Below, piece by piece: positions 20,067-39,917 of a DNA stretch of 64,000 bases; the first letter of the stretch is position 1; every line of letters starts with the position of its first letter. Made by a program: the position numbers and the translations under genes. This DNA comes from a virus (taxonomy: Duplodnaviria; Heunggongvirae; Uroviricota; Caudoviricetes): positions 47,478-111,477 of the IMG/VR virus record IMGVR_UViG_3300025913_000024. One strand, written 5' to 3'. The notes beneath the pieces are model-generated. The model was given only the letters and a program-made list of their open reading frames with translations, made no database searches and was not told the origin of the DNA.

Positions 20067-21845
20067 ATGTCAGGTGGAATCACCGGAAGAATGAACAGCG
20101 AATTGCGCGAAGCTATCACTGATAAGCTTTACCGCGATGAGCGCTCCTACCGCGACGACAAGCTCGTTGAAAAGTGGAACAGAATTCCCGAGGTAGGAAA
20201 GAATATTAAGAAGCTCGACGAAGGAACCGCAAGGCTCTTGGCTCGTCACTTGGAAAACCAAGCTCGCTTCATGGGTCGCTTGACTGAGGCCCAACTCTCT
20301 AGCGGATTCCAGGGTTTCTCCCCTGAGAACATGCTTCGTTTGGTTCGTTTGGCATACCCAAACACCATCAGAAACAAGCTCTTCACCGAGTTCGCAATGG
20401 AATCCGCAAAGGACTCCATCAAGTATATCCGCCCTGTCTACACCACCACCGCTAACGGTCAGAACTTGAACGATCGTACCTTCGGTGTTCCTGGTTGGTC
20501 AAACGCTGGCGATGCCTACGATCCTGCCGATCCTTGGAACCTTAACGGTTCGAACGACATCAACAACAGCGACTACCGCAGAGCAATGTACGAAACCAAC
20601 GAAGATCGTTACACCAACCCAATGGCTAACGCTCTTGTTGCAACTTTCGACGGAACTCACACTTGGACCGTTTACGACTCTGTTAAGGCAGTTCAGACGT
20701 TCTCTGCCGTTACCGACACATCAGCTGTTGCTAACGTTGGTGGAACCACTCTAACCCTTAACACCACCGGAACTTGGGTCATCTATGGTACTCTTACCAT
20801 CGGTACCACCCACGCCGCAGTCGGTTCTTCTGCCTTCTCTCTCGGCTACGTCGATGGATACGCTTCTCTCTTCACTGCAGCAGACAGCTATCCTCCTTCC
20901 GCCGGAACTGGTTGGCACCTTCAGGAGCAGAACGTCATCGCTACTCAGAACAAGACTGGCGCTGCTCTCTCCGTTAACGGATCTTGGATGATCAAGTCTG
21001 GATCCACTCTCACCATCACCGCAACCTCCCTCGTTGGTGTGTTCGCTCTCGGTGGTGCAGATGCCGCAAACGTCCGCGGTGGTTATGGCCGTTTTAACCC
21101 AGAAGGTGACTTCCAGGGTAACTTCCTTGGTGAAGTTGAGTTGATCATGACCGACTACTGGTTCAGACCACAGCCAACTACCATTGGTGTTACGTGGAGC
21201 CAGTTGACCGAGCTTGTTCTCGACACCTCCTTCGGAGTTGCCGCTGAGGAGCTCTTGGTTGACTACGCTGGCCAGGAAATCAAGAGATCTCTCGACGTTC
21301 GCGCCGTAAAGATCGCTTACCAAGCCGCCAAGATGAACCCAAGCTACTACACGATCACCTTTGATGCATCCTCTGGAAATAGCACGGACGACTCTTACCT
21401 CTCTACCGCTCAGACCTTCACTCAGGCTATCGCCCGTGTTGCAGACGTTCAATTGAACGATATCAACCGTGGTGGAGTTAGCCGAATGGTTGGTGGACCT
21501 GCAGCAATGACTTACCTCCGCATGGTCGGTGGTTTCTCTGCTAAGGGCCAGATGACCCCAGTCGGTGGTCACCAGATTGGAGAGCTTCAGGGCATTCCAT
21601 TGTTCAAGGTTCCTTCTAACGTCATCCCTGATGACGAGATCCTTTGTGTTTGGAAGAACGACGAGAACGAGGCAGACGTTGCAGTTGCCTTCGGTACCTT
21701 GGTTCCTTTCTTCAGCACTGGTATCATCCAGAGGAAGAACTTCTACAAGGAAGCAGGTCTTTCGACCTACGGTGACTGGAACGTTCTAAACAGACGTTAC
21801 CTTGGTCTTATCAAGATCACCGGTCTCCGCCAGCTCCAGAACTAA
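20067..21845 (+). CDS. major capsid protein, T4 gp23-like
   Basis: N-terminal region (KWNRIPEVGKNIKKLDEGTARLLARHLENQARFMG, then VRLAYPNT) aligns by eye with the T4 gp23 Delta-region (KWKPLLEGEGLPEIANSKQAIIAKIFENQEKDF, then VRRAIPNL). Strong RBS AAAAGGAAAAC; about 592 aa; followed by a terminator. Confidence 0.7.
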   Translation: MSGGITGRMNSELREAITDKLYRDERSYRDDKLVEKWNRIPEVGKNIKKLDEGTARLLARHLENQARFMGRLTEAQLSSGFQGFSPENMLRLVRLAYPNTIRNKLFTEFAMESAKDSIKYIRPVYTTTANGQNLNDRTFGVPGWSNAGDAYDPADPWNLNGSNDINNSDYRRAMYETNEDRYTNPMANALVATFDGTHTWTVYDSVKAVQTFSAVTDTSAVANVGGTTLTLNTTGTWVIYGTLTIGTTHAAVGSSAFSLGYVDGYASLFTAADSYPPSAGTGWHLQEQNVIATQNKTGAALSVNGSWMIKSGSTLTITATSLVGVFALGGADAANVRGGYGRFNPEGDFQGNFLGEVELIMTDYWFRPQPTTIGVTWSQLTELVLDTSFGVAAEELLVDYAGQEIKRSLDVRAVKIAYQAAKMNPSYYTITFDASSGNSTDDSYLSTAQTFTQAIARVADVQLNDINRGGVSRMVGGPAAMTYLRMVGGFSAKGQMTPVGGHQIGELQGIPLFKVPSNVIPDDEILCVWKNDENEADVAVAFGTLVPFFSTGIIQRKNFYKEAGLSTYGDWNVLNRRYLGLIKITGLRQLQN

Positions 21846-21871
21846 TCTAGACTAGATTCTTAAGTCAAGAA

Positions 21872-21899
21872 AAACCCTCTCGAAAGAGAGGGTTTTTTA
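21872..21899 (+). terminator. rho-independent terminator (GAAA tetraloop)
   Basis: CCCTCTC-GAAA-GAGAGGG followed by T6. Confidence 0.85.
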
Positions 21900-21927
21900 T
21901 TTTATACTTAGACATAAGGAAAACTAT

Positions 21928-22458
21928 ATGACACACTACTTCAGCACAGAAGATCTAGAACGACTCATGATGAATCAGATCCAATACCAAAAGGATCTAG
22001 ATGAAGAATTTAAGGTTCCTCTTCTTGACATTGGTTCAACTCTTGAACGTCACCTTCGAAGCATTGAGATCCCATCGGATAGAGTCAAGATCTTGGTGAT
22101 GAACACCTCTGTTGAGAAGTTCACCATCAACAACACTGAGGTGATCATCCATGCAAAGCCGATCCCAACTCTGGAGTCAAAGGATCTCGAGTTCTTTCCA
22201 GAGCAAAAGAGATACATTGAAGAAAACATTCAAGACGTGTTTGATACTCTGACAGAGTTCGACTTCTTGGTCTTCGGTCTTTTCATCCCATATGTGTTGA
22301 ATGGAACCATGACTTGGAACACTGACATCAATGAACAACCTAACGCTCTTAAGACCTCAGCCTTCTTGGGAGGTTACATGGTCTTAACCACAAAGACATC
22401 TCCTTACTCGTTGGATGCTTACTCCAAGGAATGGAGAAAGATGCTTGACAATAGTTAG
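21928..22458 (+). CDS. capsid-protein-terminus mimic family member A (176 aa)
   Basis: N-terminal LERLMMNQIQYQKDL and C-terminal FLVFGLFIPYVLNGT motifs shared with the major capsid protein and three tandem paralogues. Confidence 0.6.
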   Translation: MTHYFSTEDLERLMMNQIQYQKDLDEEFKVPLLDIGSTLERHLRSIEIPSDRVKILVMNTSVEKFTINNTEVIIHAKPIPTLESKDLEFFPEQKRYIEENIQDVFDTLTEFDFLVFGLFIPYVLNGTMTWNTDINEQPNALKTSAFLGGYMVLTTKTSPYSLDAYSKEWRKMLDNS

Positions 22459-22487
22459 GTTTATACTATGTTGATTAGGAGATCCTT

Positions 22488-23030
22488 ATGATCGAAGTTC
22501 CAGAAACAGAACTCTATGGAATGTTTCAAAACCAACTTAAGTTCCAAGAAAGACTTCCTGAGACTAACACTTTTCTAAAGTTCCTTCCTCCGATCGATGT
22601 GGGAACTAAGATTAGAAAGGTCTTTGGAACTCTAAATGTTCCTGAGAATACTAAAATCATCTCTTTGGATACAGCCAAAGCTGCCTATTCTTACAAAAAA
22701 GATGCTCTAGATAAAGCTCTTTTCTTTCCAGAAGAAGGAGATTCTGTCTACTACTTCAGAGTTAGACCAATCTCCTTACTAGGTGAAGTTTACACCCATC
22801 CTTCAGATCAAGAAAGAGACTTTTTCTTAGATTTCAAGAACAATCTAGAAAACTTCATTAACGAGATCTCAAACAAAACAAATGATCCTTCTAAAAAGAT
22901 AGTTCTAGGAATTCTAGTTCCATTCTTCCTTACTGGAGCTATTCAAAGAGAGAACTTCTTCAAGGACTCTCAATTGGCTCTGTATGGGGATTGGACCACT
23001 ATTGATGTTCAGGTAAAATCAGATGATTGA
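22488..23030 (+). CDS. capsid-protein-terminus mimic family member B (180 aa)
   Basis: N-terminal MFQNQLKFQERL. C-terminal VLGILVPFFLTGAIQRENFFKDSQLALYGDW is nearly identical in pattern to the capsid C-terminus GTLVPFFSTGIIQRKNFYKEAGLSTYGDW. Confidence 0.65.
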   Translation: MIEVPETELYGMFQNQLKFQERLPETNTFLKFLPPIDVGTKIRKVFGTLNVPENTKIISLDTAKAAYSYKKDALDKALFFPEEGDSVYYFRVRPISLLGEVYTHPSDQERDFFLDFKNNLENFINEISNKTNDPSKKIVLGILVPFFLTGAIQRENFFKDSQLALYGDWTTIDVQVKSDD

Positions 23031-23529
23031 AGAGACTTTGATAAAGGTGATCTCCCAATCTCAGCTTGATCAACTTTACGAGAACCAAAAAAACTATTAC
23101 TACACCCTAAACGACCATCATCCTTTGGTAGATGCTCTCCCTCTCTATAAGGTCAAAGAAGCCTTGGAACAAGTCTTTCAAGGTCTCAATGTTCCAAATA
23201 ATGTTGATTTTCATGTTGTAAGTAACCCAAACGGATTGAATGATCCAGGAGATTGGTACAACTATGATAGGTTTACCGATGAAGGAGAGAAGGTCTCAGT
23301 TCAATATTGGTTTAGACTTTATCCTGGAAAGGTCATAGTAGAGTTGACTCCATCGTTCTTAGATGATTACAAGAAAGAGTTTCAGAACTACATCAACAAG
23401 AACTTAGCAGAGATTAAGAGATGGCATCCTAGAAAAAAGATGGTCATGACGATTGCCATTTGGATTCCTTTCTGGTTTAACACTTCAAGTAGAAATGTGA
23501 ACTTGTTCGGCGACCATCTCATTCATTAA
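23023..23529 (+). CDS. capsid-protein-terminus mimic family member C (168 aa)
   Basis: N-terminal LDQLYENQKNYYYTL and C-terminal MTIAIWIPFWFNTSSRNVNLFGDHL. Confidence 0.6.
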   Translation: MIEETLIKVISQSQLDQLYENQKNYYYTLNDHHPLVDALPLYKVKEALEQVFQGLNVPNNVDFHVVSNPNGLNDPGDWYNYDRFTDEGEKVSVQYWFRLYPGKVIVELTPSFLDDYKKEFQNYINKNLAEIKRWHPRKKMVMTIAIWIPFWFNTSSRNVNLFGDHLIH

Positions 23530-23538
23530 GGAAAAAGT

Positions 23539-24492
23539 ATGAAACTATCTTATGAACAAAAGATTCAAATCTTAATTGATAATCAACTAAAGTACATGAA
23601 AACTCTTAAAGACGAAGACAAGAAACGTTTTCCCTTTAAAGAAGAACATGTAGAAAAGATGGTAAGAACCATCTTCAAAGAAGATGGTGTGATCAATCAA
23701 ATGTTTGATTGGACAACTTCTCCTGTAGGAGAACCATTAACCACAGATTACCTGGTAACATCTATGTCTGGTCCAGAAGATGGGATTCCAGAAGTTACTC
23801 TTGATATAAAAACCCATACGTTCACAAAGGGTCATCATTCTTATCTAGTAACATCGTCATCTAAACTTGACGAGATTAAAGAAAGTATGAAAATATGGGG
23901 AGAAGAAGTTCTTATTCAGATTGTAGCTGAAGCACTACGAAACAGTTTAGGGTCTCGTTTCATCAAAGAGATTCAAAAAATCATTGAGTTGAATCCTTAT
24001 TACAAAAGCCTATTTGATATACCTTTCTCTATAGAAGAGACAGAGGGAAGATCGTTTGTTAAATCGGTAGACGTTTCATTCGTTCAAAATTATGTTCATG
24101 CTGAAGCAAGTATGTACAGACAACTCACTAGAGGTGGAGTTACTCATATTTTATCAGGTGTTTTAATGGATTCTTATTGGAGAGTCCACCAGCAATTTGA
24201 TTGGAGATCTGCTACTCAACCAGTTTTTATTCATAGAACGGGATCTATCCAAGGAATCCAGATGTGGAGAGGCCCAAAACATCTTATTGAAGAAAGTTCT
24301 GGTTATTTTCTTTGGAAAAATCCAGATATAGAAGAAGATAAGCTAATGACTCTCGCTATTCAAACCCCTTTTATTTTAAGTAACAGATCAAACGATTTCT
24401 CTTCTAACGAGTTCTTCTTTGACGGAGACTTAGTAGTCTTTCAACCAGGATACGTAAGAGAGATTAAACTCTTAGGTTTGCCATCCATCTAA
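23539..24492 (+). CDS. capsid-protein-terminus mimic family member D (317 aa)
   Basis: N-terminal ILIDNQLKYMKTL and C-terminal LMTLAIQTPFILSNRSNDFSSNEFFFDGDLV. Confidence 0.6.
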   Translation: MKLSYEQKIQILIDNQLKYMKTLKDEDKKRFPFKEEHVEKMVRTIFKEDGVINQMFDWTTSPVGEPLTTDYLVTSMSGPEDGIPEVTLDIKTHTFTKGHHSYLVTSSSKLDEIKESMKIWGEEVLIQIVAEALRNSLGSRFIKEIQKIIELNPYYKSLFDIPFSIEETEGRSFVKSVDVSFVQNYVHAEASMYRQLTRGGVTHILSGVLMDSYWRVHQQFDWRSATQPVFIHRTGSIQGIQMWRGPKHLIEESSGYFLWKNPDIEEDKLMTLAIQTPFILSNRSNDFSSNEFFFDGDLVVFQPGYVREIKLLGLPSI

Positions 24493-24509
24493 CTATTAAC
24501 TAATTTAAC

Positions 24510-24761
24510 ATGCCACTAAAACCTCGAATCGGTGTCCACTACGAAAGCATCAGGCCACAAGAAACCGCTGAGATGGCCATTCAACGACTTAAGATCAGAC
24601 CTAAGGATTGGGTCATTCTTCCTATCATCAAACTTTCTGGATCTCAAAAGATCCTTCCACTTAAGTTCTCAGGTATCTCAGACTCGATGACTAAGATCGA
24701 AGGACCTGGTTTTATCATTGAAAAAATGTACGATCTTTTGACTAAATCCCAAATCTCTTAA
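24510..24761 (+). CDS. hypothetical protein (83 aa)
   Basis: ORF co-oriented with neighbours. Confidence 0.45.
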   Translation: MPLKPRIGVHYESIRPQETAEMAIQRLKIRPKDWVILPIIKLSGSQKILPLKFSGISDSMTKIEGPGFIIEKMYDLLTKSQIS

Positions 24762-24772
24762 GATATTGTAAG
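24759..24772 (+). promoter_or_regulatory. TAAGATATTGTAAG promoter-like motif
   Basis: Variant of the recurrent motif, 13 nt before ATG 24786, at the start of a GC-rich island. Confidence 0.4.
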
Positions 24773-24785
24773 ACGAGAGGTGAAC

Positions 24786-25082
24786 ATGATCGGAAAACTG
24801 ATTGGTGGTGTGGTCCTCGTGATCATCGCTGCTATTCTGTTCTGGCTGATTTGGGGTCTTCTGACCCCCTGGATCGTCAATTCCATCCCCGCTGGGGAGT
24901 GGAAAGCTTTCATGGGTGTGGTGGTCACCATCGTCGTGGGTTGGTTTGGAGGAATCGTTCTTCCTCTGGTCCCCCTGATTGCTGGTATCGTCTTCATCTT
25001 CAAGTTCTTCGGTCAGGCTTTTGCCTTGGCCACCGGTTCGAACATCGGTAAGTATCGTTACCGTGGTCGTCCCTACCAGTAA
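24786..25082 (+). CDS. small integral membrane protein (3 TM), on a GC-rich island
   Basis: RBS GAGAGG; hydrophobic throughout; noticeably higher GC than the flanks; followed by a terminator. Confidence 0.6.
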   Translation: MIGKLIGGVVLVIIAAILFWLIWGLLTPWIVNSIPAGEWKAFMGVVVTIVVGWFGGIVLPLVPLIAGIVFIFKFFGQAFALATGSNIGKYRYRGRPYQ

Positions 25083-25103
25083 GAACTTTCAGTTTTGTTA
25101 AAG

Positions 25104-25129
25104 ATCCTCCCGAAAGGGAGGATTTTTTA
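25104..25129 (+). terminator. rho-independent terminator (GAAA tetraloop)
   Basis: ATCCTCCC-GAAA-GGGAGGAT followed by T6. Confidence 0.85.
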
Positions 25130-25149
25130 TTGTCTTCTAGATATACTAC

Positions 25150-25162
25150 TGAGATATTGTAG
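25150..25162 (+). promoter_or_regulatory. TGAGATATTGTAG promoter-like motif (only 5 nt before ATG, so a leaderless transcript is possible)
   Basis: Exact consensus copy. No Shine-Dalgarno sequence lies between the motif and ATG 25168. Confidence 0.45.
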
Positions 25163-25167
25163 CCATC

Positions 25168-25392
25168 ATGGATGAACTTACTTGGGAACAGGTGAAAGAC
25201 GGTAAGCACGAAGAGTGGAACGCCGTCCAGAAAGATCACGTTCAGGCTTACATCAAGAGACTCTCTGCTTTTCGTCTCGATGTGAAGTTTCGGAACCCGA
25301 CCATTGAGGACTTTGAGTTCCTCGGTTCTTTGGGAGAAGCTAAGTCTTTGACCCGAGAAGAACTGGCTAAGGTCGAACCCATCTCAAAGTAG
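25168..25392 (+). CDS. hypothetical protein (74 aa)
   Basis: GC-rich island ORF with no RBS. Confidence 0.45.
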   Translation: MDELTWEQVKDGKHEEWNAVQKDHVQAYIKRLSAFRLDVKFRNPTIEDFEFLGSLGEAKSLTREELAKVEPISK

Positions 25393-25399
25393 GAATAAC

Positions 25400-25612
25400 A
25401 TGGCCGAAGTTCACGCCGAGATTGAATATATCCATCCCACCGAAGGACACTCTGTCCACAGTGACATCTGTCCTCCTGATTGTGACTCTGAAGGACTTTC
25501 TGATCTTGAGTATCGGAAGTTTCTTCATGATTGTCTTGACGAGTGGTTGGACAAGTCCAAAGGCACTGGCATCTTCTACATCAAGAATGTCGATGCTAAG
25601 ATTGATTTTTAA
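25400..25612 (+). CDS. hypothetical Cys/His-containing protein (70 aa)
   Basis: RBS GGAATAAC; contains HSVHSDICPPDCD. Confidence 0.45.
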   Translation: MAEVHAEIEYIHPTEGHSVHSDICPPDCDSEGLSDLEYRKFLHDCLDEWLDKSKGTGIFYIKNVDAKIDF

Positions 25613-25632
25613 CCTGTAAAGGAACTAGAAGA

Positions 25633-25881
25633 ATGAGTCAGTATGTCAACGAAAACGTTGCCATTGAGTTTGCCCAGACGGGTACCTTGATTGGCAAGAC
25701 CGAGCCTTCCAGGGAAACCAAGTGGACCTGGTGGGAAGTTTATACCAAGGACGACAGAATCGTCGCTTGTGTTGTCGATGAAGAGAACGGAATCATCTGC
25801 GGAGAAGAGATCTCCAGGCAGGAACTCCCTGGATACGTTGACGATATCGAGAATGCCCTAGAGACCCTCGTGGAGGCCTAA
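25633..25881 (+). CDS. hypothetical protein (82 aa)
   Basis: RBS GGAACTAGAAGA region; GC-rich island. Confidence 0.45.
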   Translation: MSQYVNENVAIEFAQTGTLIGKTEPSRETKWTWWEVYTKDDRIVACVVDEENGIICGEEISRQELPGYVDDIENALETLVEA

Positions 25882-25882
25882 C

Positions 25883-26164
25883 ATGCCCGCAGTTCGATTT
25901 GAGTCCAATCTGGACGTCCTGAAAGGAAAGATAGGTGGAACCTTTGATCATTGGGAAGGAGAACTTCCTAAGGTTGGAGATCAACTAAGGATCACCACTC
26001 AGAAAGGAGAACTCAGATTCGAGATCTTGTCAAAGACATGGTTTCTTGGATCCTCTCCTACTTGTGTCTTTTACGTGAGTGTTCCTACCGATCTCTACAA
26101 GGAAGAAGGAACTTCTAAGATGAAGACTCTTCCTAAAGAATGGACTGACGTCTACTACAAGTAA
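25883..26164 (+). CDS. hypothetical protein (93 aa)
   Basis: Start adjacent to the upstream stop. Confidence 0.45.
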   Translation: MPAVRFESNLDVLKGKIGGTFDHWEGELPKVGDQLRITTQKGELRFEILSKTWFLGSSPTCVFYVSVPTDLYKEEGTSKMKTLPKEWTDVYYK

Positions 26165-26173
26165 GGAGATTCT

Positions 26174-26374
26174 ATGGACTTCGGAAAGTACTTTCAGAGC
26201 ATGTTGGACATCAATGCACAACGATGGAAGTTGGCTCTTACTCCTGAAGGGATCGTAATAGACATTGCCGCAATCCTTTTGATCGTAGGAATCACACTTT
26301 GGATCAAGTGGGATGACGTTCGAGATGTCTTCAGTACTCTTAAGAAGATGAGAGATCTTAAAAAGAAAAAGTAA
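26174..26374 (+). CDS. small membrane protein (66 aa)
   Basis: RBS AAGGAG; one TM helix. Confidence 0.45.
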   Translation: MDFGKYFQSMLDINAQRWKLALTPEGIVIDIAAILLIVGITLWIKWDDVRDVFSTLKKMRDLKKKK

Positions 26375-26381
26375 CAACATC

Positions 26382-26873
26382 ATGAAAAAATTTATCTTCC
26401 TCGATATTGACGGAGTTCTCGCAACCACTTGGCACAAACGCCTTGAGGATGGAGAGCTCTGTTTCAATGAGGCACCAGTCAGAAACTTTAACGATCTTTG
26501 TACGGCGGTACCTGATGCAAAGATCATCATCACCTCAACATGGCGTCTTGGTAGAACTGTTGATGAGTTGAGAGCTATCTTCAAGTTTAGAGGTTTTCTT
26601 TATCCTGAGAGGATCATCGATAAAACTCTCAGATTCTTCTACAACTACGACCTCAGCGATGGAACCTCTGCATCTAAAGGAGTTCCTAGAGGTGTTGAGA
26701 TCGCTCATTGGATGGATCATCATCTCATTGATGAGGATGAGATCTCCTACTTGATTCTTGATGACGACTCAGACATGATGCTCCGTCAAGGCAACCATTT
26801 CCTTCGAACCAATAGTTCTAGAGGTTTGACTTCGACAAACGTCAAAAGAGCGATTAAGATCCTAAATGGCTAG
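26382..26873 (+). CDS. HAD-superfamily phosphatase (polynucleotide-phosphatase or 5'-nucleotidase-like)
   Basis: Motif I FLDIDGVLA (DxDGV), motif II ITSTW, motif IV LILDDDSD. Confidence 0.55.
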   Translation: MKKFIFLDIDGVLATTWHKRLEDGELCFNEAPVRNFNDLCTAVPDAKIIITSTWRLGRTVDELRAIFKFRGFLYPERIIDKTLRFFYNYDLSDGTSASKGVPRGVEIAHWMDHHLIDEDEISYLILDDDSDMMLRQGNHFLRTNSSRGLTSTNVKRAIKILNG

Positions 26874-27060
26874 AACGATCCTCATCACCGGAAATTTTCC
26901 TATCTACAAAAACGGTCACAAGACTGGAAAGACTGAGTTCGTTGTCTCTCATGGAGTCAACGAAGAGACAGGAAGGAACGTGATTCTTCCCTGTGAACAC
27001 CCTGCCATGCTCGGTGCAAAGTTCGACTCACAACTTCAAGAGTGGGTGTTGGAGAATTAA
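26866..27060 (+). CDS. hypothetical protein (64 aa)
   Basis: Overlapping start. Confidence 0.4.
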   Translation: MARTILITGNFPIYKNGHKTGKTEFVVSHGVNEETGRNVILPCEHPAMLGAKFDSQLQEWVLEN

Positions 27061-27061
27061 T

Positions 27062-27256
27062 ATGCAAAGTCTCTACGATTGGTTTGATCCCAGTCTTATT
27101 ACTCATCTTCGTGCTTTACGGTATGCAGATGAACATGGCCATTTTCCTGAAGATTTCATCGTAAATGGTGTTGAGGTCGGGCCTACTGACATCATTGGTA
27201 TCTACGCTAAGGTAGCTCAAGCTCACCTTACCGAGAAGCTTGGACCAAGGAAATAA
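27062..27256 (+). CDS. hypothetical protein (65 aa)
   Basis: RBS GGAG 8 nt upstream of ATG 27062. Confidence 0.45.
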   Translation: MQSLYDWFDPSLITHLRALRYADEHGHFPEDFIVNGVEVGPTDIIGIYAKVAQAHLTEKLGPRK

Positions 27257-27258
27257 CC

Positions 27259-27705
27259 ATGTTCAGATTTTCAAAACCAAAAGAAGCTCCTACTCGTCAC
27301 GAAGTAGAAGAAGCCCAAGAACTTTACGACAAAGATCCTGAAGGTTTGGTCTTTTTCCGTAAACTCCAGTCCATGGAGCCACCCTACACTCTTAAGAGAC
27401 ACTTTGGATTTTTCTTCGGCGGAAACTCTTCCATCATGTACCAAGATACCCGAATTCATACTATGCAGGACTTGAGTGCTAAGGCAACAGTTCTCATAGC
27501 CAATGGTGCTTACAGAGAAGGTATGCTCCATCAATGGAATGAGACTCGAACCAAGGTTGATGAACTCATCTCTACTTTGAAGAAGACAGCTAAGAATCTC
27601 AAAGATGATACTTTGGTCTCAATGGCCGAAGGAATGGCCAACGAGATAATTGCCAAGACCATTGAAGAAGTGATCATTCAAGAGATCAAGAAACTTCGAT
27701 CATGA
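27259..27705 (+). CDS. hypothetical protein (148 aa)
   Basis: ORF in a co-oriented block. Confidence 0.5.
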   Translation: MFRFSKPKEAPTRHEVEEAQELYDKDPEGLVFFRKLQSMEPPYTLKRHFGFFFGGNSSIMYQDTRIHTMQDLSAKATVLIANGAYREGMLHQWNETRTKVDELISTLKKTAKNLKDDTLVSMAEGMANEIIAKTIEEVIIQEIKKLRS

Positions 27706-28082
27706 TGGCTCCTGTGTTTCCTTTTTTTATGTTCGCTGGACTCTTTTCTAAAAAGAAAGAAGAGACTAAGGTACCAGAGGTTCAAACTTATCCTGATCGA
27801 TTCTTCGCTTTAGATCAATCAGAGACTGAAAGACTCATGAAGGATCATGAAAATGGAGATCCTCATATCTCTTTCCGGGTCTACAAGAATCTTCAATACT
27901 ACCGAAAGTTGGTAGCTAATTACAACGAAAAGTACCAGATGTCAGTAGTCATTTCTCCTAACGAGATGAAGTTATTCAAGAAAGAAAGAGACGATGATCT
28001 AGAAGTACTCAGGGAGTACTCTCGTCAGATCATTGCTCATTTACGGGAAGAAGCTTTTACAGGATTTTATTGGAAAAAATGA
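27702..28082 (+). CDS. hypothetical protein (126 aa)
   Basis: ATGA start/stop overlap. Confidence 0.5.
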   Translation: MMAPVFPFFMFAGLFSKKKEETKVPEVQTYPDRFFALDQSETERLMKDHENGDPHISFRVYKNLQYYRKLVANYNEKYQMSVVISPNEMKLFKKERDDDLEVLREYSRQIIAHLREEAFTGFYWKK

Positions 28083-28223
28083 TGTCTAAAATTAAAACGT
28101 GTGATGAAAAAATTGTCTTTTGAACGATTTTTGCTCTTGTAGCAAGATCCAAATCTCTCCTCTTTATCTAGTTGTCATAGCAATCGGATTAGCTATAGGA
28201 ATTGCTTTGATCAAGGTTTTTAT

Positions 28224-28652
28224 ATGAGATTCACTCAAGAATGGTTTAGAAACTCACCACAAGAAGAAGTCAAGCTATTGAATGGTGAGGAAGTTTGGGT
28301 CTGCGATTACAGATTCACCTCATTAGGCAACAAGCCTATTCGAGTCATTGTTCCGACTCTTTGTATCATCCACGTCAGTTTTTACGTGGACAAGTACTAT
28401 CCTAGAGGAAACCCGATTCCTGTTGTAGAACTCAAGATCAAGAAGAACGGAAAAGATCTTAAGGTAGAAGACAACACAACGGCCTACAACAACTGGCTGA
28501 AGATCTTTAACGATGAACAAGAGTGCAGAGCTTTCTTCAGAGAACAAATGACCGAAAACCTTGATGACCTAGACGAGTGGGAAAAAGGTCAGATAGAAAG
28601 AGCTGCAGAACTCAGAGCTACAATGCACAAGCTCCTAAAGGAACACGGATGA
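28224..28652 (+). CDS. hypothetical protein (142 aa)
   Basis: Preceded by a 140-nt AT-rich spacer. Confidence 0.5.
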   Translation: MRFTQEWFRNSPQEEVKLLNGEEVWVCDYRFTSLGNKPIRVIVPTLCIIHVSFYVDKYYPRGNPIPVVELKIKKNGKDLKVEDNTTAYNNWLKIFNDEQECRAFFREQMTENLDDLDEWEKGQIERAAELRATMHKLLKEHG

Positions 28653-29449
28653 GCAACAAATTTAAGAACGATTCACTTGGAACAAGGATGAAGGAGAACT
28701 ATGAGAACAGATCAAAGATCTTTCTCCCTCGTAGAACCTACATCATCCTTCGTGTGGATGGCAAAGCTTTTCACACATACACGCGTGGTCTATTAAGGCC
28801 TTTCGACCAGGGTTTGGTCGAAGACATGGACGCTACGGCAATCTACCTTTGCAAGAACATCATGGGTGCTCAGTTCGCCTATGTACAGTCTGACGAGATC
28901 TCTATTCTTCTCACAGACTTTGACACCAACGAGACCCAATCTTGGTTTGACAACAATGTCCAGAAGCTTGCCTCAGTCTCTGCTTCTATGGCAACCTCAG
29001 CTTTCAACAAGGCCAGGATTTCAAGGTTCATGGCTACTACGACAGCAGTTCCTCTCGAGGATGCTGTGGACAAATTGACTTGGGCAGAGTTTGACTCTCG
29101 TGCCTTCCAGATCCCTCAGAAAGTTGAAGTAGAGAACTACTTCATCTGGCGTCAGCAGGATGCTACAAGAAACGCCATCTCCAGTGCTGCTCAATCTGTC
29201 TACTCCCACAAAGAACTTGAGGGAAAGTCTGGAGATGAGAAGCAAGAGATGATGTTTCAGAGAGGCATCAACTTCAACGACTATGATCCTAAGTACAAAA
29301 GAGGTCGTTTGATCGTTACAGAAACTTTTCCAAGTATCTCAGTTACATCAGGTGACATGGCAATTAGAACAAAATGGGTCTCCACGGCCGCTCCTATCTT
29401 CACTCAAGATAGAGATGATCTCTCTGATAGAATTCCAGAAAGTAGGTAA
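28649..29449 (+). CDS. Thg1-like protein (tRNA-His guanylyltransferase family 3'-5' nucleotidyltransferase)
   Basis: Start ATGA overlaps the upstream stop. Motifs ILRVDGKAFHTYTRG, YVQSDEISILL and QKLASVSASMATSAF match the Thg1 signatures VVRLDGRNFHRF, YGQSDEYSFVF and SKFMTHVASQFAS. Confidence 0.75.
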   Translation: MSNKFKNDSLGTRMKENYENRSKIFLPRRTYIILRVDGKAFHTYTRGLLRPFDQGLVEDMDATAIYLCKNIMGAQFAYVQSDEISILLTDFDTNETQSWFDNNVQKLASVSASMATSAFNKARISRFMATTTAVPLEDAVDKLTWAEFDSRAFQIPQKVEVENYFIWRQQDATRNAISSAAQSVYSHKELEGKSGDEKQEMMFQRGINFNDYDPKYKRGRLIVTETFPSISVTSGDMAIRTKWVSTAAPIFTQDRDDLSDRIPESR

Positions 29450-29452
29450 GAC

Positions 29453-29782
29453 ATGGAACGAGACACAGGTCCATTTAGGATCGAAGACGAAGAAGAACCA
29501 GACCTCGGACCAACCTCTGAGATTGAAGTAGTTGAAGGAGCTAGTTCTTCTGCTGAAGATAGCGAAGATTACTCCCCAAATGTCAAGATCTTCATTGACA
29601 AGGACTACTCTGGAGCCCTTTGGGTTCCTGAGAGAGATCTTCTTGAGAACATGAGTGTGGACCAGTTGGTTCTTTATTGGAGTGATCCTTATGCTCCTAT
29701 CGAAGTTCCTGCTCATGTGGTAGCTCAGCTTAAAGCCAAGGCTCACAGCCAGCTAGGATACTTGAACAAGAAACGAAGGTAA
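29453..29782 (+). CDS. hypothetical acidic protein (109 aa)
   Basis: ORF immediately after Thg1-like. Confidence 0.45.
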   Translation: MERDTGPFRIEDEEEPDLGPTSEIEVVEGASSSAEDSEDYSPNVKIFIDKDYSGALWVPERDLLENMSVDQLVLYWSDPYAPIEVPAHVVAQLKAKAHSQLGYLNKKRR

Positions 29783-29786
29783 GAAC

Positions 29787-30020
29787 ATGAGCTGTTTAGT
29801 TTGTGGCCAAAATGCGTTTGATAGGATTGACATCACTATCCCTGGAGTTCCCAGAGTATATTTGAAATCCTCTAGAGGAGAAGTTGATCTTTCATTTTGC
29901 ACGATCTGCGGAACTGTCAAAGCTGACGTGCCCTTCCCATCTACAACTAGAGCTGCTTTGTTAGAAGATAGATATAAAAAGATCTTAGAAAGAAACAGTG
30001 GTTTGTCCACAGATCCTTGA
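29787..30020 (+). CDS. small zinc-ribbon protein (CxxC...CxxC)
   Basis: CLVCG ... CTICG. Confidence 0.45.
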   Translation: MSCLVCGQNAFDRIDITIPGVPRVYLKSSRGEVDLSFCTICGTVKADVPFPSTTRAALLEDRYKKILERNSGLSTDP

Positions 30021-30030
30021 GATATTGTAG
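30018..30030 (+). promoter_or_regulatory. TGAGATATTGTAG promoter-like motif
   Basis: Exact consensus, 21 nt before ATG 30052 (RBS AAGGAGG between); starts a GC-rich island. Confidence 0.5.
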
Positions 30031-30051
30031 TCAACTCAAGGAGGTTTCATC

Positions 30052-30282
30052 ATGCCCGCTATTTCGGATATGGTCGAGAAGTACAAGGAACGAGTGATCG
30101 TTCTGGAACGGAAGATCTCGAACGCTGGTTACGGTGGATCCTCTGACTACACGTCGGAGACTGAACGTGAGACCTTGATTGAGGTCATCAATGATCTCGA
30201 GGCCATGTCTGGTCTCGAAAGAACCATCTTCCCTGAACCCTTCAAGGAAGGTTGGCACGGAATGATTGGAGGTCCGAACTAA
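30052..30282 (+). CDS. hypothetical protein (76 aa)
   Basis: Strong RBS AAGGAGG; GC-rich island. Confidence 0.55.
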   Translation: MPAISDMVEKYKERVIVLERKISNAGYGGSSDYTSETERETLIEVINDLEAMSGLERTIFPEPFKEGWHGMIGGPN

Positions 30283-30666
30283 ATGGACGACACTGCTAAG
30301 GCATTTTCAGGACTTGCGATTCTTCTTCTGCTCATCTTGTGGTGTTGTGGAAGTTGCATCGGGACGGTCAGCAATCAGGCTGACATGACCGCTACTGTTA
30401 TCAAAGCAGAACGGATTAACAATAGGTCCAACAACGGATCTCGTTACTTGGTCTTTACCAAGGACGTGAAGAGTCTGAGCGGAGACAGCTCTGCAACTGA
30501 AGAGGTCTTCGAAGACACCGATGAGTGGGTCTTCGGAAAGTTCAACTCTTCGGATCTGTACGGAAGCCTGACTCCCGGTACTCGTTATCAGTTCCACGTG
30601 TCTGGTGTTCGTAACCAGATGTTCTCGTGGTATCGCAACATCATCAAAGCTGAAGAGGTGAAGTAA
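30283..30666 (+). CDS. putative lipoprotein or secreted protein (127 aa)
   Basis: N-terminal LAILLLLILWCCGSC signal/lipobox-like segment. Confidence 0.5.
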   Translation: MDDTAKAFSGLAILLLLILWCCGSCIGTVSNQADMTATVIKAERINNRSNNGSRYLVFTKDVKSLSGDSSATEEVFEDTDEWVFGKFNSSDLYGSLTPGTRYQFHVSGVRNQMFSWYRNIIKAEEVK

Positions 30667-30667
30667 C

Positions 30668-31126
30668 ATGTCCAAGACTCCTGCTGAACAACTTTCCATT
30701 GCGATCTCGATCGCTTCGAAGGGCCATGAAGGGGTCTTGGATAAGGGCGGCTCGCCCTACATCCTTCATCCTCTTCACGTGATGAACGCTGTTGCCCATC
30801 TTGGCTATCTGTGCATGGCTGCTGGTGTTCTTCATGACACTATTGAAGACACTGACACCACTGCTCAGAATCTGCGTGACGCTGGTCTCGAAGAGAACGT
30901 GGTCATGACTGTCTTGGCCGTCTCTCGCCCTAATGGAGTTCTCTATGATGACTTCATCAAGGCGATTGGAGCTACCCCCGGTATCGTAGGAACTTGGGCT
31001 CGGGCCATCAAGTTGGCTGACATCGAACACAACTCTACCGTCACTCGCCTCAAGGGTGTGGCTAAGAAGGACTTCGATCGTCTTCAGAAGTATGTCTATG
31101 CATACCAGTATCTGAAGGAAGTGTAA
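30668..31126 (+). CDS. small alarmone hydrolase (RelA/SpoT-type HD domain, Mesh1-like (p)ppGpp hydrolase)
   Basis: HD-domain motifs YILHPLHV and LHDTIEDT match the SpoT/Mesh1 hydrolase signature (HxxxHD...ED). 152 aa is the stand-alone SAH size. Confidence 0.7.
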   Translation: MSKTPAEQLSIAISIASKGHEGVLDKGGSPYILHPLHVMNAVAHLGYLCMAAGVLHDTIEDTDTTAQNLRDAGLEENVVMTVLAVSRPNGVLYDDFIKAIGATPGIVGTWARAIKLADIEHNSTVTRLKGVAKKDFDRLQKYVYAYQYLKEV

Positions 31127-31127
31127 G

Positions 31128-31310
31128 ATGAGTTTCAACTCTGTGGTTACTGCTGTTACTCCTACCTCTCCTCTCAACAAGAAGAACAAGACCAACTTTG
31201 GTTTGGAATTCTGGAAGAAGCTAGCTTCCAAACAGAAGGAAGCAGATCCTGAACGTCACGAATCCAAAGAATACCTTCAGCAACACACCGAAGGATGGGA
31301 GGATCTCTAA
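31128..31310 (+). CDS. hypothetical protein (60 aa)
   Basis: Small ORF. Confidence 0.4.
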   Translation: MSFNSVVTAVTPTSPLNKKNKTNFGLEFWKKLASKQKEADPERHESKEYLQQHTEGWEDL

Positions 31311-31552
31311 TGAGTAAAGGTACTCTTTTCATCCAAGGTAGTGTTGGCCAGGTCTCTGATGCTGATAAGGCTTGGGACCTCGTGGTCAAGGCTGGCGAAG
31401 AGAAGATGGATTTAGCTGATCGTCTTATTGGCTACAAAGAAAAGTCCATCATGTATGGCTTTGCTTTGAAAGAGATCCGTAAGCTCATCGCTGGTAAGAA
31501 AGATACTACCTCGATGGCCATCCGAAAGATCATCCTAGAAATTCAATCATGA
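31310..31552 (+). CDS. hypothetical protein (80 aa)
   Basis: RBS GGGAGGA 6 nt before ATG 31310 (TAATG overlap). Confidence 0.5.
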   Translation: MSKGTLFIQGSVGQVSDADKAWDLVVKAGEEKMDLADRLIGYKEKSIMYGFALKEIRKLIAGKKDTTSMAIRKIILEIQS

Positions 31553-31860
31553 GTTCTGCTACTATTGACGTAGATCCTAAAGATTTGAAAGTCATGAACT
31601 CTCATGGCTATGACAACGTTTTCTTCTGGGATGAAATTCCTTGTACGTGCGACGCCTGTCGACATGTGGTCTCACGTAAGACTCTTGTGAGATCCCAAGA
31701 ACAAGGGGTCTTTCTTTTGATCCACCCTACGAAGTACAGTGAGTACAGCACCATTGTGAACTCCATCTTTCTCAACAGAGTTTTCACTGGAAATGAGATC
31801 TGGTTAAGATCTGAGTGCAAACGATATGGGATCAAGATCCTCAAAGAGATTCGACTATGA
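31549..31860 (+). CDS. hypothetical Cys-containing protein (103 aa)
   Basis: ATGA overlap; CTCDACRH. Confidence 0.45.
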   Translation: MSSATIDVDPKDLKVMNSHGYDNVFFWDEIPCTCDACRHVVSRKTLVRSQEQGVFLLIHPTKYSEYSTIVNSIFLNRVFTGNEIWLRSECKRYGIKILKEIRL

Positions 31861-32189
31861 CAAACAAAAAGAAAAGTATCAAAGATCAAATGAATGATTT
31901 GATTTTATCAGACTCTAACACCATTCAAGGAAAGTTCAAGATCATCAAAAGCATCAATTGGGATAAATTCCAAGATCATCTTCGACTTGGAATCTTTATC
32001 TTTTTGGGAGTTTGGTGTGTCTTTTCTTTTGTCTGGTGGTGCTTTCACATTCATGGTTGGGGACAAGACCGATCCTTCTTTGGGTTTGCTTGGGCCATTA
32101 CAGTCAGCATGGAAGGCGTAATAGCTGGAATTGGAGCATTCGTTCTTTTTGTCATGTTTGTTCTGTGGCTATTTAAGGTAAACAAATGA
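31857..32189 (+). CDS. small membrane protein (2 TM)
   Basis: ATGA overlap; hydrophobic segments. Confidence 0.45.
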   Translation: MTNKKKSIKDQMNDLILSDSNTIQGKFKIIKSINWDKFQDHLRLGIFIFLGVWCVFSFVWWCFHIHGWGQDRSFFGFAWAITVSMEGVIAGIGAFVLFVMFVLWLFKVNK

Positions 32190-32768
32190 AGATTGCAGAA
32201 GCCCGTGAAAAAGTCAAAGATCTCATCTGGAACCAAGCTAATGTCTATGGTGACCAGATCATGAGTCGAGATACTCTCGACGCCATTCGTGCTGTTTTGA
32301 AAGACAGCCAGAGAAAAAGTCAAAGATCTCATCTGGAACCAAGCTAATGTCTATGGTGACCAGATCATGAGTCGAGATACTCTCGACGCCATTCGTGCTG
32401 TTTTGAAAGACAGCCAGAGAAACGCAAAGAAGACTCCCAAGATTGTCAAGACTCCTAATTTCATGGTAGGTCTTCCTAAGTTTGAAGGAAAGATCGGTGA
32501 AGAGATTCCTGTAAAGTTTGGAAACAAAGTTTACAAGACTAGAATCGACCACATGGGAACTCAAAGATTTCTCCCCATCCCCGGCTACGAAAAGTACGCT
32601 GAAGACTTCATGATCGATGGTGGACCTAACGAGTGGATAGCCCGTATGTACAAGGGAGAACTTACTAGTCAGGAAGTTTTCAATCGTAGAATCGGTGGTT
32701 ATAGTATCAGTGGTTTCTGTGATTGCTACCCTAGCTACCAGTGCATCAATCCTCTTTGGGAGACCTGA
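32186..32768 (+). pseudogene. gene disrupted by a perfect 106-bp tandem duplication (N-terminal 43-codon fragment plus restart at 32367)
   Basis: ATG 32186 reads MKIAEAREKVKDLIWNQANVYGDQIMSRDTLDAIRAVLKDSQR and then shifts frame into a stop. The second repeat copy restores the same protein from the internal Met 32367. Removing one copy gives a single intact 168-aa ORF. Confidence 0.7.
32211..32422 (+). repeat. perfect 2 x 106-bp direct tandem duplication
   Basis: 32211-32316 is identical to 32317-32422, read directly. The unit length is not a multiple of 3. Confidence 0.95.
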
Positions 32769-34703: not shown

Positions 34704-35351
34704 ATGAGATTTACTATGAAAAAGCTATTCATCACAGTGATGATCTCTCTTTTCTTGTGGGGTTGTACGGTAACCAAGACCGTTGAGGTCTCTCCTACAC
34801 CTACACCAGATCCTATCGCAGTACAACCTCCAACTTTCATTCCTCAAACCATCGAGATGCCCTTGGAGTTTCAACTTCCCATGAAGGACCCTATCGTTAC
34901 AAGCCGTTTTGGATATCGAAATGACTTGAAGAAAGGTCCAATGGGTGGTGGAGACTCTATTCACATGGGACTCGACATGATCCCGAAGAATAGAAAGTTG
35001 ATCCATGCTCCTATCTTGGCAGCAGCGGATGGAGAGGTTGTTATTGTTTATCCTCCTCCGAGCAAGAAGTTCAAAGGTCATGTCGTTTTTGGTGGTTGTA
35101 TTCAGATCAAGAGTGACTCCGGCTGGAGAACCAAGTCTGGAAAGATCATTTGGGCGTACACCTTGTACGGACACATGAGTGATGTTTGGATGACAGAAGG
35201 CACCATGGTCAAAGCTGGTCAAGTCATAGGTCTGATGGGAAACACAGGACAAGCTGAAGGCTATCACCTCCACTTCGAGGTCTCATTTGACCCTGAAGAC
35301 TTTCTTCCAGAGCTTGATGCTCTTCCTACTCTACGAAAGGCTCAAGACTAA
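34704..35351 (+). CDS. lipoprotein M23-family (LytM-like) peptidase, a candidate endolysin or cell-wall hydrolase
   Basis: Lipobox-like LFLWGC signal. M23 signature HMGLD ... GNTGQAEGYHLHFEV (HxH motif). An alternative start at 34716 (MKKLF) is possible. Confidence 0.65.
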   Translation: MRFTMKKLFITVMISLFLWGCTVTKTVEVSPTPTPDPIAVQPPTFIPQTIEMPLEFQLPMKDPIVTSRFGYRNDLKKGPMGGGDSIHMGLDMIPKNRKLIHAPILAAADGEVVIVYPPPSKKFKGHVVFGGCIQIKSDSGWRTKSGKIIWAYTLYGHMSDVWMTEGTMVKAGQVIGLMGNTGQAEGYHLHFEVSFDPEDFLPELDALPTLRKAQD

Positions 35352-36638: not shown

Positions 36639-36901
36639 GTGGTCCAGCTCCAAAGCATGGACAACCTACCCACCATGAAGCTGTTCATCACGTTTATCTT
36701 ACTGTAGAACAGATGGAGAAGATGACAACTCAACGTCTTCTAGCTTACTTCAAGAAACACTTGATGCATGATCCATTCTATCCTTCCAGTGAAAAAGAAA
36801 AACATGACGAGTGGGAGATGGTTAGAGCTAAAGCTCAAAGTATACTATCAAGTAGAGAACATGTTCCTTCTAAGAGGGAACTCCAAAAGAGAAAGAAATG
36901 A
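36635..36901 (+). CDS. hypothetical protein (88 aa)
   Basis: ATGA overlap. Confidence 0.45.
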   Translation: MSGPAPKHGQPTHHEAVHHVYLTVEQMEKMTTQRLLAYFKKHLMHDPFYPSSEKEKHDEWEMVRAKAQSILSSREHVPSKRELQKRKK

Positions 36902-37320
36902 CACGATACGTTTTAGGTTTTCTTTTTGATGACGAAAAGAACACGGTCGTCTTGATCAAGAAAAACAAGCCTGTTTGGCAAAAAGGTCTCTTGAACGGTG
37001 TTGGTGGGAAGATCGAAGAAGGTGAACTTCCTATAGTCGCTATGGTAAGAGAGTTTGAAGAGGAAACGTCTGTGAAAACAGACAACCTTGATTGGAAGCA
37101 CTTTGCTGGTGTTGAAGGCGAAGGTTACTCCATCGCTTGTTTCTACACCATCAGTTCTGACTACATGAAAAACGTCAAGACCATGGAAGAAGAAGTGATC
37201 GAGATTCGTAGGATTCGAGATCTTCAAGATCTTCCTATAGTCTCCAATCTTCTTTGGTTGGTTCACCTTGCAAAAGATGAAAACAATGGTAACCATCCTA
37301 CTGTTCAAGTAAAGTACTAA
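36898..37320 (+). CDS. Nudix hydrolase
   Basis: Nudix box GGKIEEGELPIVAMVREFEEETSV fits Gx5Ex7REUxEExGU with G replaced by S in the last position. Confidence 0.65.
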   Translation: MTRYVLGFLFDDEKNTVVLIKKNKPVWQKGLLNGVGGKIEEGELPIVAMVREFEEETSVKTDNLDWKHFAGVEGEGYSIACFYTISSDYMKNVKTMEEEVIEIRRIRDLQDLPIVSNLLWLVHLAKDENNGNHPTVQVKY

Positions 37321-38489: not shown

Positions 38490-38656
38490 ACGTAATGACC
38501 TAGAGCTTGAGCATAGGTTAAGCCAAACGGTAAAGTAAAGGCCGCCAAATAGCAAAAGGGAGGGTTTCTATCTTCTAAAGATCTAAACCACTATATTTTG
38601 TTTTTTTAATAGATTGTTTTTCGAAAAGGGAACCTGTTGGTTCCCTTTTCCTTTTT
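38490..38656 (+). ncRNA. candidate small non-coding RNA (promoter motif, then about 135 nt with no ORF, then an intrinsic terminator)
   Basis: No ORF longer than a few codons. Terminator AAGGGAACC-TGTT-GGTTCCCTT plus TTCCTTTTT at 38626-38656. Confidence 0.3.
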
Positions 38657-38706: not shown

Positions 38707-39917
38707 ATGGCCCGTATTGAAAAGCTGATCATGGTGACCGGTGAAGAGAATCACAACAAGGTCTATGAGCTGATCGACAACGAGAACGGTACTTGTACCG
38801 CCAAGTGGGGTCGGGTTGGCGCTGCTCTTCAGGAGTGCAACTACCCCATCAGCGAGTTTGAAAAGAAGCTCAAGGAAAAGGTCAAGAAGGGCTATCGCGT
38901 GATCACCGATCTTCTGTCTGTCGAGAAAAGTGATGGTAAGACCACCACTACGGACGACGAAGAGGTAAAGATCCAGAACATGTCCCGTGAGGCCATGGAG
39001 TTGATCAACTTCCTCCAGAGTTGTGCTAAGGCATCGTCAAGCAGAACTACACCGTCAAAGTTGCCGACGTTACTCAGAAGCAGATCGACGCTGCTCAGGC
39101 CATCCTGGACGGACTGGTTGCTCTGTCCAACCAGAACTGGTCTCGTGAAGAGGCCAACAAGATCCTTTTGGATCTTTACAACACCATCCCCCGGAAGATG
39201 AGCAACACCAAGAACTTCCTCATCCAGATCGACAACATCACGAAGAAGCGCCTTCAGGAGTTGATCTCCAGTGAAGCCGATCTTCTTGACGTTATGCGCG
39301 GTCAGGTTCAGACCACGAACGTTGCTCCCAAGTCTTCCACTGGCGAAGTCAAGTTGGATATTGAGATTCGTCTCGCTACTCCCGATGAGATCGATGAGAT
39401 CTCCAAGAAGACTGACTTTGATGTTCGTAGTGCTGCAAGGATCTATCGGGTGGAGAACACCAAGACCAAGAATCGCTACGAAAGTATCAACAAGCAGAAT
39501 GAACAGCTTCTCTACCACGGTTCTCGCAGCCAGAACTGGTGGTCGATCATCAACGGCGGTTTGAAGATTCGTCCGACCAACGCCGTTCACACTGGCTCGA
39601 TGTTCTCCGATGGTATCTACGCTGCTGACAAAGCTCAGAAGTCTCTCGGTTACACCGACGGTGGTTATTGGACTGGTAGCAGTGGTTCCTCGAAGAGGTT
39701 CCTCGGCATCTACAGTTTCAACCTCGGTCGTCAGTGGGATCTGTTCGCTGGTGGTCAGCGTCATGCCAGCTGGATGATGCAGCTCAACCTGAAGAAGATC
39801 AACGACAAGGGTTTTGACTCTCTGTTCGCTAAGGGTGGAGCAGATCTTCGCAACAATGAGATGATCGTGTTCGAAGAGGCTCGCTGCACCATCAAGTATC
39901 TGATCGAGATGCGTTAA
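38707..39917 (+). pseudogene. PARP-like ADP-ribosyltransferase (WGR domain, helical region, H-Y-E catalytic domain), split by a -1 frame change near 39027-39032
   Basis: N-terminal WGR motif TAKWGRVGA. C-terminal LLYHGSRSQNWWSIINGGLKIRP ... GSMFSDGIYAADKAQKS ... NEMIVFEEARCTIKYLIE parallels PARP1 [23 protein letters not shown] ... GYMFGKGIYFADMVSKS ... NEYIVYDIAQVNLKYLLK. Frame 1 turns into Ser/Thr/Arg-rich nonsense after ...FLQSCAK. Frame 0 is open from 39030 and reads as sensible protein. A single continuous 403-codon gene needs a 1-nt change. Confidence 0.75.

Follow-up and report, generated by a model that had tools for sequence, protein, structure and literature searches.

What does a 152-aa protein with the HD signature of alarmone hydrolases do for a large phage? 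Toxic small alarmone synthetases (toxSAS), CapRel and FaRel among them, are established effectors of abortive infection. The original prediction for this gene, a stand-alone small alarmone hydrolase (SAH) with a SpoT-type HD domain, offered two uses for it: blunting of the host stringent response or neutralization of toxSAS. The gene lies in a 64-kb stretch of viral DNA, analyzed here at its full length and referred to as the window. Positions 20668 to 32316 of the window are 100% identical to an independently assembled 305,853-bp metagenomic contig (ENA ERZ27252312, k141_4393686). A Gp23-like capsid protein is encoded on that contig, and rIIA-like, ribonucleotide reductase, and tail proteins are encoded in the window; the source is therefore a jumbo phage (∼306 kb). 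No close deposited phage exists at the DNA level, as a megablast search of 26 to 36 kb of the window against 50,697 phage records returned no match.

The gene is an intact ORF that begins with ATG (Table 1). Both motifs on which the original prediction relied were located as claimed, with HPLHV at residues 34 to 38 (nucleotides 30767 to 30781) and LHDTIEDT at residues 55 to 62 (nucleotides 30830 to 30853). A single base separates the TAA stop codon of the upstream gene (30664 to 30666) from the ATG, which suggests that the hydrolase gene is translationally coupled to its neighbor; because of this spacing, we place it in a tightly packed, probably coupled series of plus-strand genes.

Table 1. 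Features of the hydrolase locus (window coordinates)
Feature	Position	Strand	Basis
Promoter-like motif TGAGATATTGTAG	30018..30030	+	Recurrence; putative promoter function
76-aa ORF of no recognizable family, co-oriented with the hydrolase gene and probably co-transcribed	30052..30282	+	No profile matches
127-aa protein with hydrophobic N-terminal anchor or signal	30283..30666	+	PHROG 301 "secreted protein"
Shine-Dalgarno-like GAGGTG, 7 nt 5' of the hydrolase ATG	30655..30660	+	Sequence
Hydrolase gene (Aph1/PbcSpo-type SAH, HD domain)	30668..31126	+	ORF, 7SMG match, AlphaFold2 model, Foldseek, 42-homologue alignment
D25 codon (equivalent to Aph1 D24; Arg in (p)ppGpp hydrolases)	30740..30742	+	LDKGG (query) versus IDKAG (Aph1) versus VRKSG (RelSeq); role of D24 from PMC10083569
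N122-R127 codons (NSTVTR), substrate loop	31031..31048	+	Alignments and PMC10083569; N122 = Aph1 N114, T124 in place of Aph1 D116, R127 = Aph1 R119

In general, profile searches placed the protein among RelA/SpoT-type hydrolases with uneven coverage. The check originally proposed, a search with Pfam PF13328 (HD_4), matched the N-terminal half of the profile (positions 1 to 75 of 156; E = 8.7e-6) and scored 26.0 bits, just under the gathering cutoff of 27.2; taken alone, this sub-cutoff score over half of the profile would look marginal. NCBIfam spoT_relA matched the same N-terminal ∼75 residues (6e-13), and PHROG 990 ("metal-dependent phosphohydrolase") matched the full length of the protein (2.4e-38). 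The top match among PDB sequences (phmmer) was 7SMG, the (p)ppApp-specific enzyme Aph1 (adenosine 3'-pyrophosphohydrolase 1) of Bacteroides caccae, which aligned with residues 9 to 151 (E = 2.3e-28). In contrast, Rel, SpoT, RelA, Mesh1, and PaSAH matched only approximately the first 60 to 120 residues (mostly ∼75) at E values of 6e-9 or higher, leaving 7SMG ahead by about twenty orders of magnitude. The unevenness of the profile matches thus reflects full-length similarity to 7SMG and N-terminal similarity alone to the other RSH hydrolases.

When the C-terminal 60 residues (93 to 152) were searched alone, 7SMG was the sole PDB match (E = 1.4e-8), aligned over Aph1 residues 90 to 143. This is the region (Y90-E143, outside the HD motif) that Ahmad et al. 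2023 used to separate Aph from (p)ppGpp hydrolases (PMC10083569), and homology to it is present in the phage protein. Taking family and chemistry jointly, we are highly confident that the gene product is a stand-alone RelA/SpoT-type HD hydrolase of the Aph1/PbcSpo clade, with membership of the PbcSpo SAH subfamily (classification of Jimmy et al. 2020) putative and assigned by proxy, from 42% identity (E = 6e-35) to gp220 of Salmonella phage PVP-SE1.

Structure prediction gave the same placement. An AlphaFold2 model built from 42 homologues (pLDDT 95.7, pTM 0.90) consists of eight main helices and one 4-residue turn. Foldseek comparison with the PDB ranked the four chains of 7SMG on top (TM score, 0.83 to 0.93; root mean square deviation, 1.5 to 2.5 Å), followed by Mesh1, Rel, SpoT, PaSAH, and RelH. 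All 28 PDB matches at E ≤ 1e-3 were RSH hydrolases, whose all-helical fold the model shares. Target-normalized TM scores were 0.88 to 0.93 to Aph1 versus 0.56 to 0.67 to SAHs of 172 to 193 residues, which fits a predicted topology as compact as that of Aph1, without the helices 0 and 9 found in Rel and PaSAH. RelA/SpoT-family hydrolases are thus the best matches by profile, by sequence, and by fold, as the assignment as a stand-alone SAH had anticipated. Neither of the outcomes that had been named as speaking against that assignment, best matches to unrelated HD phosphohydrolases and absence of the ED motif, was found, and HD...ED is invariant in the family alignment.

In the alignment of 42 sequences, thirteen positions do not vary (D25, Y31, I32, H34, H56, D57, E60, D61, K115, D118, N122, R127, and Y142), and at least 90% of the homologues retain K141. 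The metal-binding and catalytic residues H34, H56, D57, E60, D61, D118, and N122 are intact, giving the H...HD...D pattern together with ED. Ahmad et al. described an Aph signature of D24, R96, D116, R119, K133, and Y134 (PMC10083569). Mapped through a HMMER alignment, these positions correspond to D25, Ala, Thr124, R127, K141, and Y142, so that four of the six are kept, including both validated determinants. The same authors reported that an Aph1 D24R/R119A double mutant acquires ppGpp activity (PMC10083569). RelSeq and Mtb Rel, both (p)ppGpp hydrolases, have Arg at the position of D25.

Variation at the R96 and D116 positions is seen in the closest homologues of the phage protein as well; these two residues therefore do not appear to define the wider clade. 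The protein also has a 5-residue insertion (approximately residues 106 to 110) that is absent from all homologues aligned. Because of the two changed signature positions and this unique insertion, its specificity could differ from that of Aph1. Among purified Aph1 homologues, all 12 hydrolyzed ppApp, and only 2 of the 12 showed modest ppGpp activity (PMC10083569). On the basis of the conserved specificity residues and this family biochemistry, the hydrolase is predicted to be specific for adenosine-3'-pyrophosphates.

Aph1, encoded by a B. caccae prophage (PDB 7SMG, PMC10083569), is the closest characterized relative. The two proteins are of similar size (143 aa for Aph1) and are 46% identical over their full length (MAFFT); the HD/ED core and Aph1 residues N114, D24, R119, K133, and Y134 are common to both. 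They differ at Aph1 R96 and D116, which are Ala and Thr here, and in the insertion, which precedes the helix carrying K115 and D118. The settings differ as well: Aph1 comes from a temperate Bacteroides phage and the present enzyme from a ∼306-kb phage, where, unlike the Aph1 gene, it adjoins no MuF-Apk2 toxin or Tis1 gene. Criteria for the Aph1 family of Ahmad et al. include a homotetrameric state and hydrolysis of (p)ppApp but not of (p)ppGpp (PMC10083569).

Direct precedent for toxSAS neutralization, the second of the proposed uses, comes from a phage homologue. Gp220 of PVP-SE1 is 42% identical to the hydrolase over 139 residues. Being the single match in the PVP-SE1 record, gp220 is presumably the SAH that Jimmy et al. 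2020 tested by co-expression in Escherichia coli, where this PbcSpo enzyme neutralized CapRel, PhRel, PhRel2, FaRel2, and FaRel (PMC7229694). Both enzymes stand alone, and PVP-SE1 is likewise a large phage, a virulent one; however, gp220 is longer (169 aa) and lies downstream of a thymidylate kinase gene, whereas the hydrolase gene has other neighbors. PaSpo of Salmonella phage SSU5 and the antitoxin ATfaRel also neutralized toxSAS in E. coli (PMC7229694). According to Kurata et al., four of the toxSAS tested against the PVP-SE1 SAH pyrophosphorylate the CCA end of tRNA, and ATfaRel and MESH1 restore aminoacylation, ATfaRel having been assayed on FaRel2-pyrophosphorylated tRNA.

ATfaRel of Cellulomonas marina, the SAH antitoxin of a FaRel module, belongs to PbcSpo like the PVP-SE1 enzyme and is likened to the phage hydrolase here by description. 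As a catalytic antidote, it breaks down (pp)pApp and clears pyrophosphate from tRNA CCA ends, the same mechanism that we propose for the hydrolase. However, ATfaRel is encoded with its toxin in a three-gene toxin-antitoxin operon, whereas the phage gene is an orphan. More distant are PaSpo, which is also phage encoded and detoxifies toxSAS, Mesh1, PaSAH, and the hydrolase domains of SpoT and Rel. Their HD fold and catalytic motif are those of the hydrolase, but they are longer (∼175 to 205 aa) with extra helices, match it in sequence only in the N-terminal half, are 18 to 29% identical to it in fold alignments, and hydrolyze (p)ppGpp or both alarmones.

The hydrolase has many relatives. A tblastn search found them in 285 of the deposited phage genomes (Aeromonas and Streptococcus phages, Klebsiella phages, Vequintavirinae, and others), all at <60% identity, the best being Leptolyngbya phage Lbo-JY46 (48.6%). 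IMG/VR viral contigs hold at least 185 stretches that encode relatives, and the closest proteins (50 to 52% identical) lie on metagenome contigs with phage-like gene organization. A search of 1.84 billion representatives retrieved 2,765 at E ≤ 1e-10; at E ≤ 1e-30 it retrieved only the hydrolase itself, which thus forms its own 50%-identity cluster. A recent bacterial donor was considered and rejected, as the best matches in bacterial genomes do not exceed 41% identity and come from scattered taxa.

The same searches brought up two further groups of relatives. Dozens of viral contigs of ∼50 to 135 kb (loci L096 to L166; IMG/VR sample 3300045988 and others), many of them from one metagenome, carry an Aph-like gene of 33 to 36% identity, which points to a phage lineage that conserves the hydrolase. 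Multidomain relatives were also found among proteins P0243, P0104, and P0106. Judging from their matches, P0243 (2,948 aa, 16 matched stretches) and P0104 (441 aa, 4 stretches) would be proteins of repeated Aph-like HD modules, an architecture of which we know no description.

Alternative roles for the hydrolase have to be weighed against these findings. The original suggestion that the phage lowers host ppGpp with a (p)ppGpp hydrolase, and so blunts the stringent response, draws on the HD...ED catalytic core common to the hydrolase, SpoT, Rel, and Mesh1, on the modest ppGpp activity of the two Aph1 homologues mentioned above, and on the Thr that replaces D116 of the Aph1 signature. We regard it as unlikely. 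Where Rel enzymes have an Arg that contacts guanine, the hydrolase has D25, and R127 is the retained Aph1 R119, whereas the gain of ppGpp activity in Aph1 needs both residues altered; moreover, ppGpp hydrolysis is undetectable in Aph1 and the C-terminal half of the hydrolase is Aph1 specific. Blunting of the stringent response is thus disfavored because the enzyme belongs to a clade whose tested members are (p)ppApp specific and keeps D25 and R127. Self-immunity, in which the enzyme would protect the infected cell or the producer against a (p)ppApp-synthetase toxin of the phage itself, is the role that Aph1, the founding member, has natively, and it is modeled on Aph1 and the MuF-fused Apk2 of Bacteroides prophages. 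It is improbable for the present gene, because neither a RelA_SpoT synthetase nor a MuF protein was found among the 100 ORFs of the 64-kb window (of a genome of ∼306 kb); Tis1-like proteins were likewise absent from these ORFs, and none of the three occurred among the called genes within ±10 kb. The adjacent genes are unrelated small ORFs, and only 0.4% of Aph homologues adjoin MuF genes according to Ahmad et al. (PMC10083569).

At 23 to 25% identity to Mesh1, compared with 42 to 46% to Aph1, and with both the C-terminal half typical of Aph1 and the specificity residues conserved, the hydrolase is very unlikely to act on another 3'- or 2'-phosphorylated nucleotide, as Mesh1 does on NADPH or PAPS, and so to have its place in nucleotide or cofactor metabolism instead of conflict. 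What speaks for such a role is that the second-best fold matches are Mesh1 structures with NADPH and PAPS and that the window also holds nucleotide-metabolism genes (ribonucleotide reductase, glutaredoxin, and NUDIX). Finally, it is scarcely credible that the gene is a decaying or nonfunctional passenger. The ORF is full length, all invariant family residues are intact, the predicted fold is very confident, the gene has a good ribosome-binding site and translational coupling, and it is 100% identical in the independently assembled contig; these points outweigh its isolation in a 50%-identity cluster, its unique insertion, and the presence in the same window of two damaged genes, one PARP-like and frameshifted, the other split by a duplication.

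We return to an antidote against toxic alarmone synthetases as the preferred reading. The protein would be a compact, single-domain HD 3'-pyrophosphohydrolase that depends on Mg2+/Mn2+ and belongs, within the RelA/SpoT superfamily, to the Aph1/PbcSpo branch; in the large phage, it would be expressed from a long series of small genes on one strand. Its action would be to remove the 3'-diphosphate from adenosine nucleotides, converting pppApp, ppApp, and pApp to ATP, ADP, and AMP plus PPi, and, by analogy with tested PbcSpo members, probably also from 3'-pyrophosphorylated A76 of tRNA CCA ends. In this way it would serve as a toxin-agnostic catalytic antidote to the toxic SAS of the host, covering both (p)ppApp makers of the FaRel/Tas1 type and tRNA pyrophosphorylators of the CapRel/PhRel/FaRel2 type; ATP pools and translation would be maintained, and infection would not be aborted. 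Overall, we consider it likely that the gene encodes a metal-dependent HD hydrolase that acts on (p)ppApp and/or pyrophosphorylated tRNA as a phage antidote to toxic alarmone synthetases. The analysis establishes the family, the fold, the intact active site, and the conserved adenosine-specificity residues; the substrates and the counter-defense role during infection are inferred, and for that role taken alone the balance tips only slightly in its favor. The precedents are co-expression assays, and the literature searched gave no demonstration of a phage SAH protecting a phage in a real infection. The hydrolase matched none of the PADLOC defense models.

The surroundings of the gene had been described as a GC-rich moron headed by a sequence motif. 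The motif is real and recurrent. The copy of TGAGATATTGTAG at 30018 to 30030 shares bases with the stop codon of the gene before it, and the block's first gene begins 21 nt downstream. Further exact copies lie at 25150 and 38667, and copies that differ at one position lie at 38477, 47237, and 56961, all six being on the plus strand. At up to two mismatches, there were 10 matches versus 2.2 expected, a number reached in none of 100 shuffles. The consensus is approximately TTGAGATATTGTAGAC, and most copies precede a start codon by 10 to 35 nt. A strong hairpin and T-run terminator (38623 to 38650) ends ∼17 nt before one of the copies, and the copy at 47237 falls within a minus-strand gene and may be due to chance. 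A candidate phage-specific promoter is a reasonable inference from this distribution.

The GC enrichment is likewise real, with 49.7% for 30018 to 31126 versus a window mean of 43.7% (standard deviation of 3.3% at that size), i.e., +1.8 standard deviations and within the top 4%. It is modest and not unique, since four other regions are richer in GC, including the capsid gene (53%). GC at third codon positions is 56 to 60% in the block versus 28 to 50% in neighboring genes. A moron proper was not borne out: the promoter-like motif lies upstream, but the block lacks a terminator of its own and the neighbors are not conserved partners. No credible plus-strand terminator was found after 31126 before the strong one at 38623 to 38650, and the genes between 31126 and ∼38.6 kb are back-to-back, tightly packed or overlapping. 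A conserved three-gene cassette was also rejected, as neither of the two genes upstream (76 aa and 127 aa) occurs in any of 165 other Aph-anchored loci. The term "GC-rich moron" was thus an overstatement, as was "lipoprotein-like" for the 127-aa neighbor. This protein matches PHROG 301 at 1.5e-16 and has a hydrophobic N terminus without a canonical lipobox ([LVI][ASTVI][GAS]C): in MDDTAKAFSGLAILLLLILWCCGSCIG, no Cys follows the canonical -3 to -1 set, and in ...LILWCCGSC, W, C, or C stands where [AGS] or [LIVMFWSTAG] is due.

Several other genes of the window merit a note. The plus-strand small-gene block that holds the hydrolase gene also encodes a NUDIX hydrolase (36898 to 37320; 6.7e-11) that matches the PADLOC candidate defense model PDC-S07 (2.2e-7). 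An SPFH/Band-7 protein (44428 to 45291; 2.5e-25) and an M23 peptidase (34704 to 35351; 1.6e-16) lie in the same early-looking block. Relative to a sister contig, a 1-bp deletion (GGG to GG) near 39030 causes a frameshift that divides a 403-aa protein with WGR and PARP catalytic domains, a PARP-like ADP-ribosyltransferase, into ORFs 38707 to 39201 and 39168 to 39917. A Macro domain (PF01661, 6.3e-6) was found in one of the 100 window ORFs scanned; alongside the PARP-like gene, it raises the possibility of a writer/eraser pair for ADP-ribosylation. A 106-bp tandem duplication (32200 to 32422; 2.1 copies, 98% match) splits a 158-aa gene of the sister contig (L001, 11519 to 11995) into ORFs 32186 to 32347 (53 aa) and 32367 to 32768 (133 aa); this could be strain variation or an assembly artifact.

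The window also encodes a Thg1-like tRNA-His guanylyltransferase/3'-5' polymerase (28646 to 29449; PHROG 4717, 2.9e-80) and, 1.8 kb from it, HAD_SAK_2, a "Swiss Army Knife" RNA-repair HAD phosphatase (26382 to 26873; 1.4e-25). Homologues of the two lie within 6 kb of each other in 13 of 80 Thg1-anchored IMG/VR loci, which suggests a semiconserved phage RNA-repair pair. The Thg1-like gene is three genes upstream of the hydrolase gene. A tRNA-repair island that includes the hydrolase was rejected on two counts: no Aph-like gene occurred in the 80 Thg1-anchored viral loci (±6 kb), and neither Thg1 nor HAD_SAK_2 occurred in 160 Aph-anchored loci (80 viral and 80 bacterial). Because the genes do not co-occur in anchored loci, the proximity of Thg1 and hydrolase looks specific to this phage. 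It is doubtful that the physiological substrate is the 3'-pyrophosphorylated tRNA CCA end rather than a free alarmone and that the hydrolase forms, with the Thg1-like protein and HAD_SAK_2, a phage tRNA-end repair kit against CapRel-like, tRNA-targeting immunity. If that were true, the hydrolase would be an RNA-repair enzyme and not an alarmone hydrolase.

The gene is a divergent addition to a hydrolase clade whose structure, biochemistry, and detoxification of toxSAS on co-expression are already known. If phages do carry a catalytic, toxin-agnostic antidote of this kind, it would give them a general escape from toxic alarmone synthetases.
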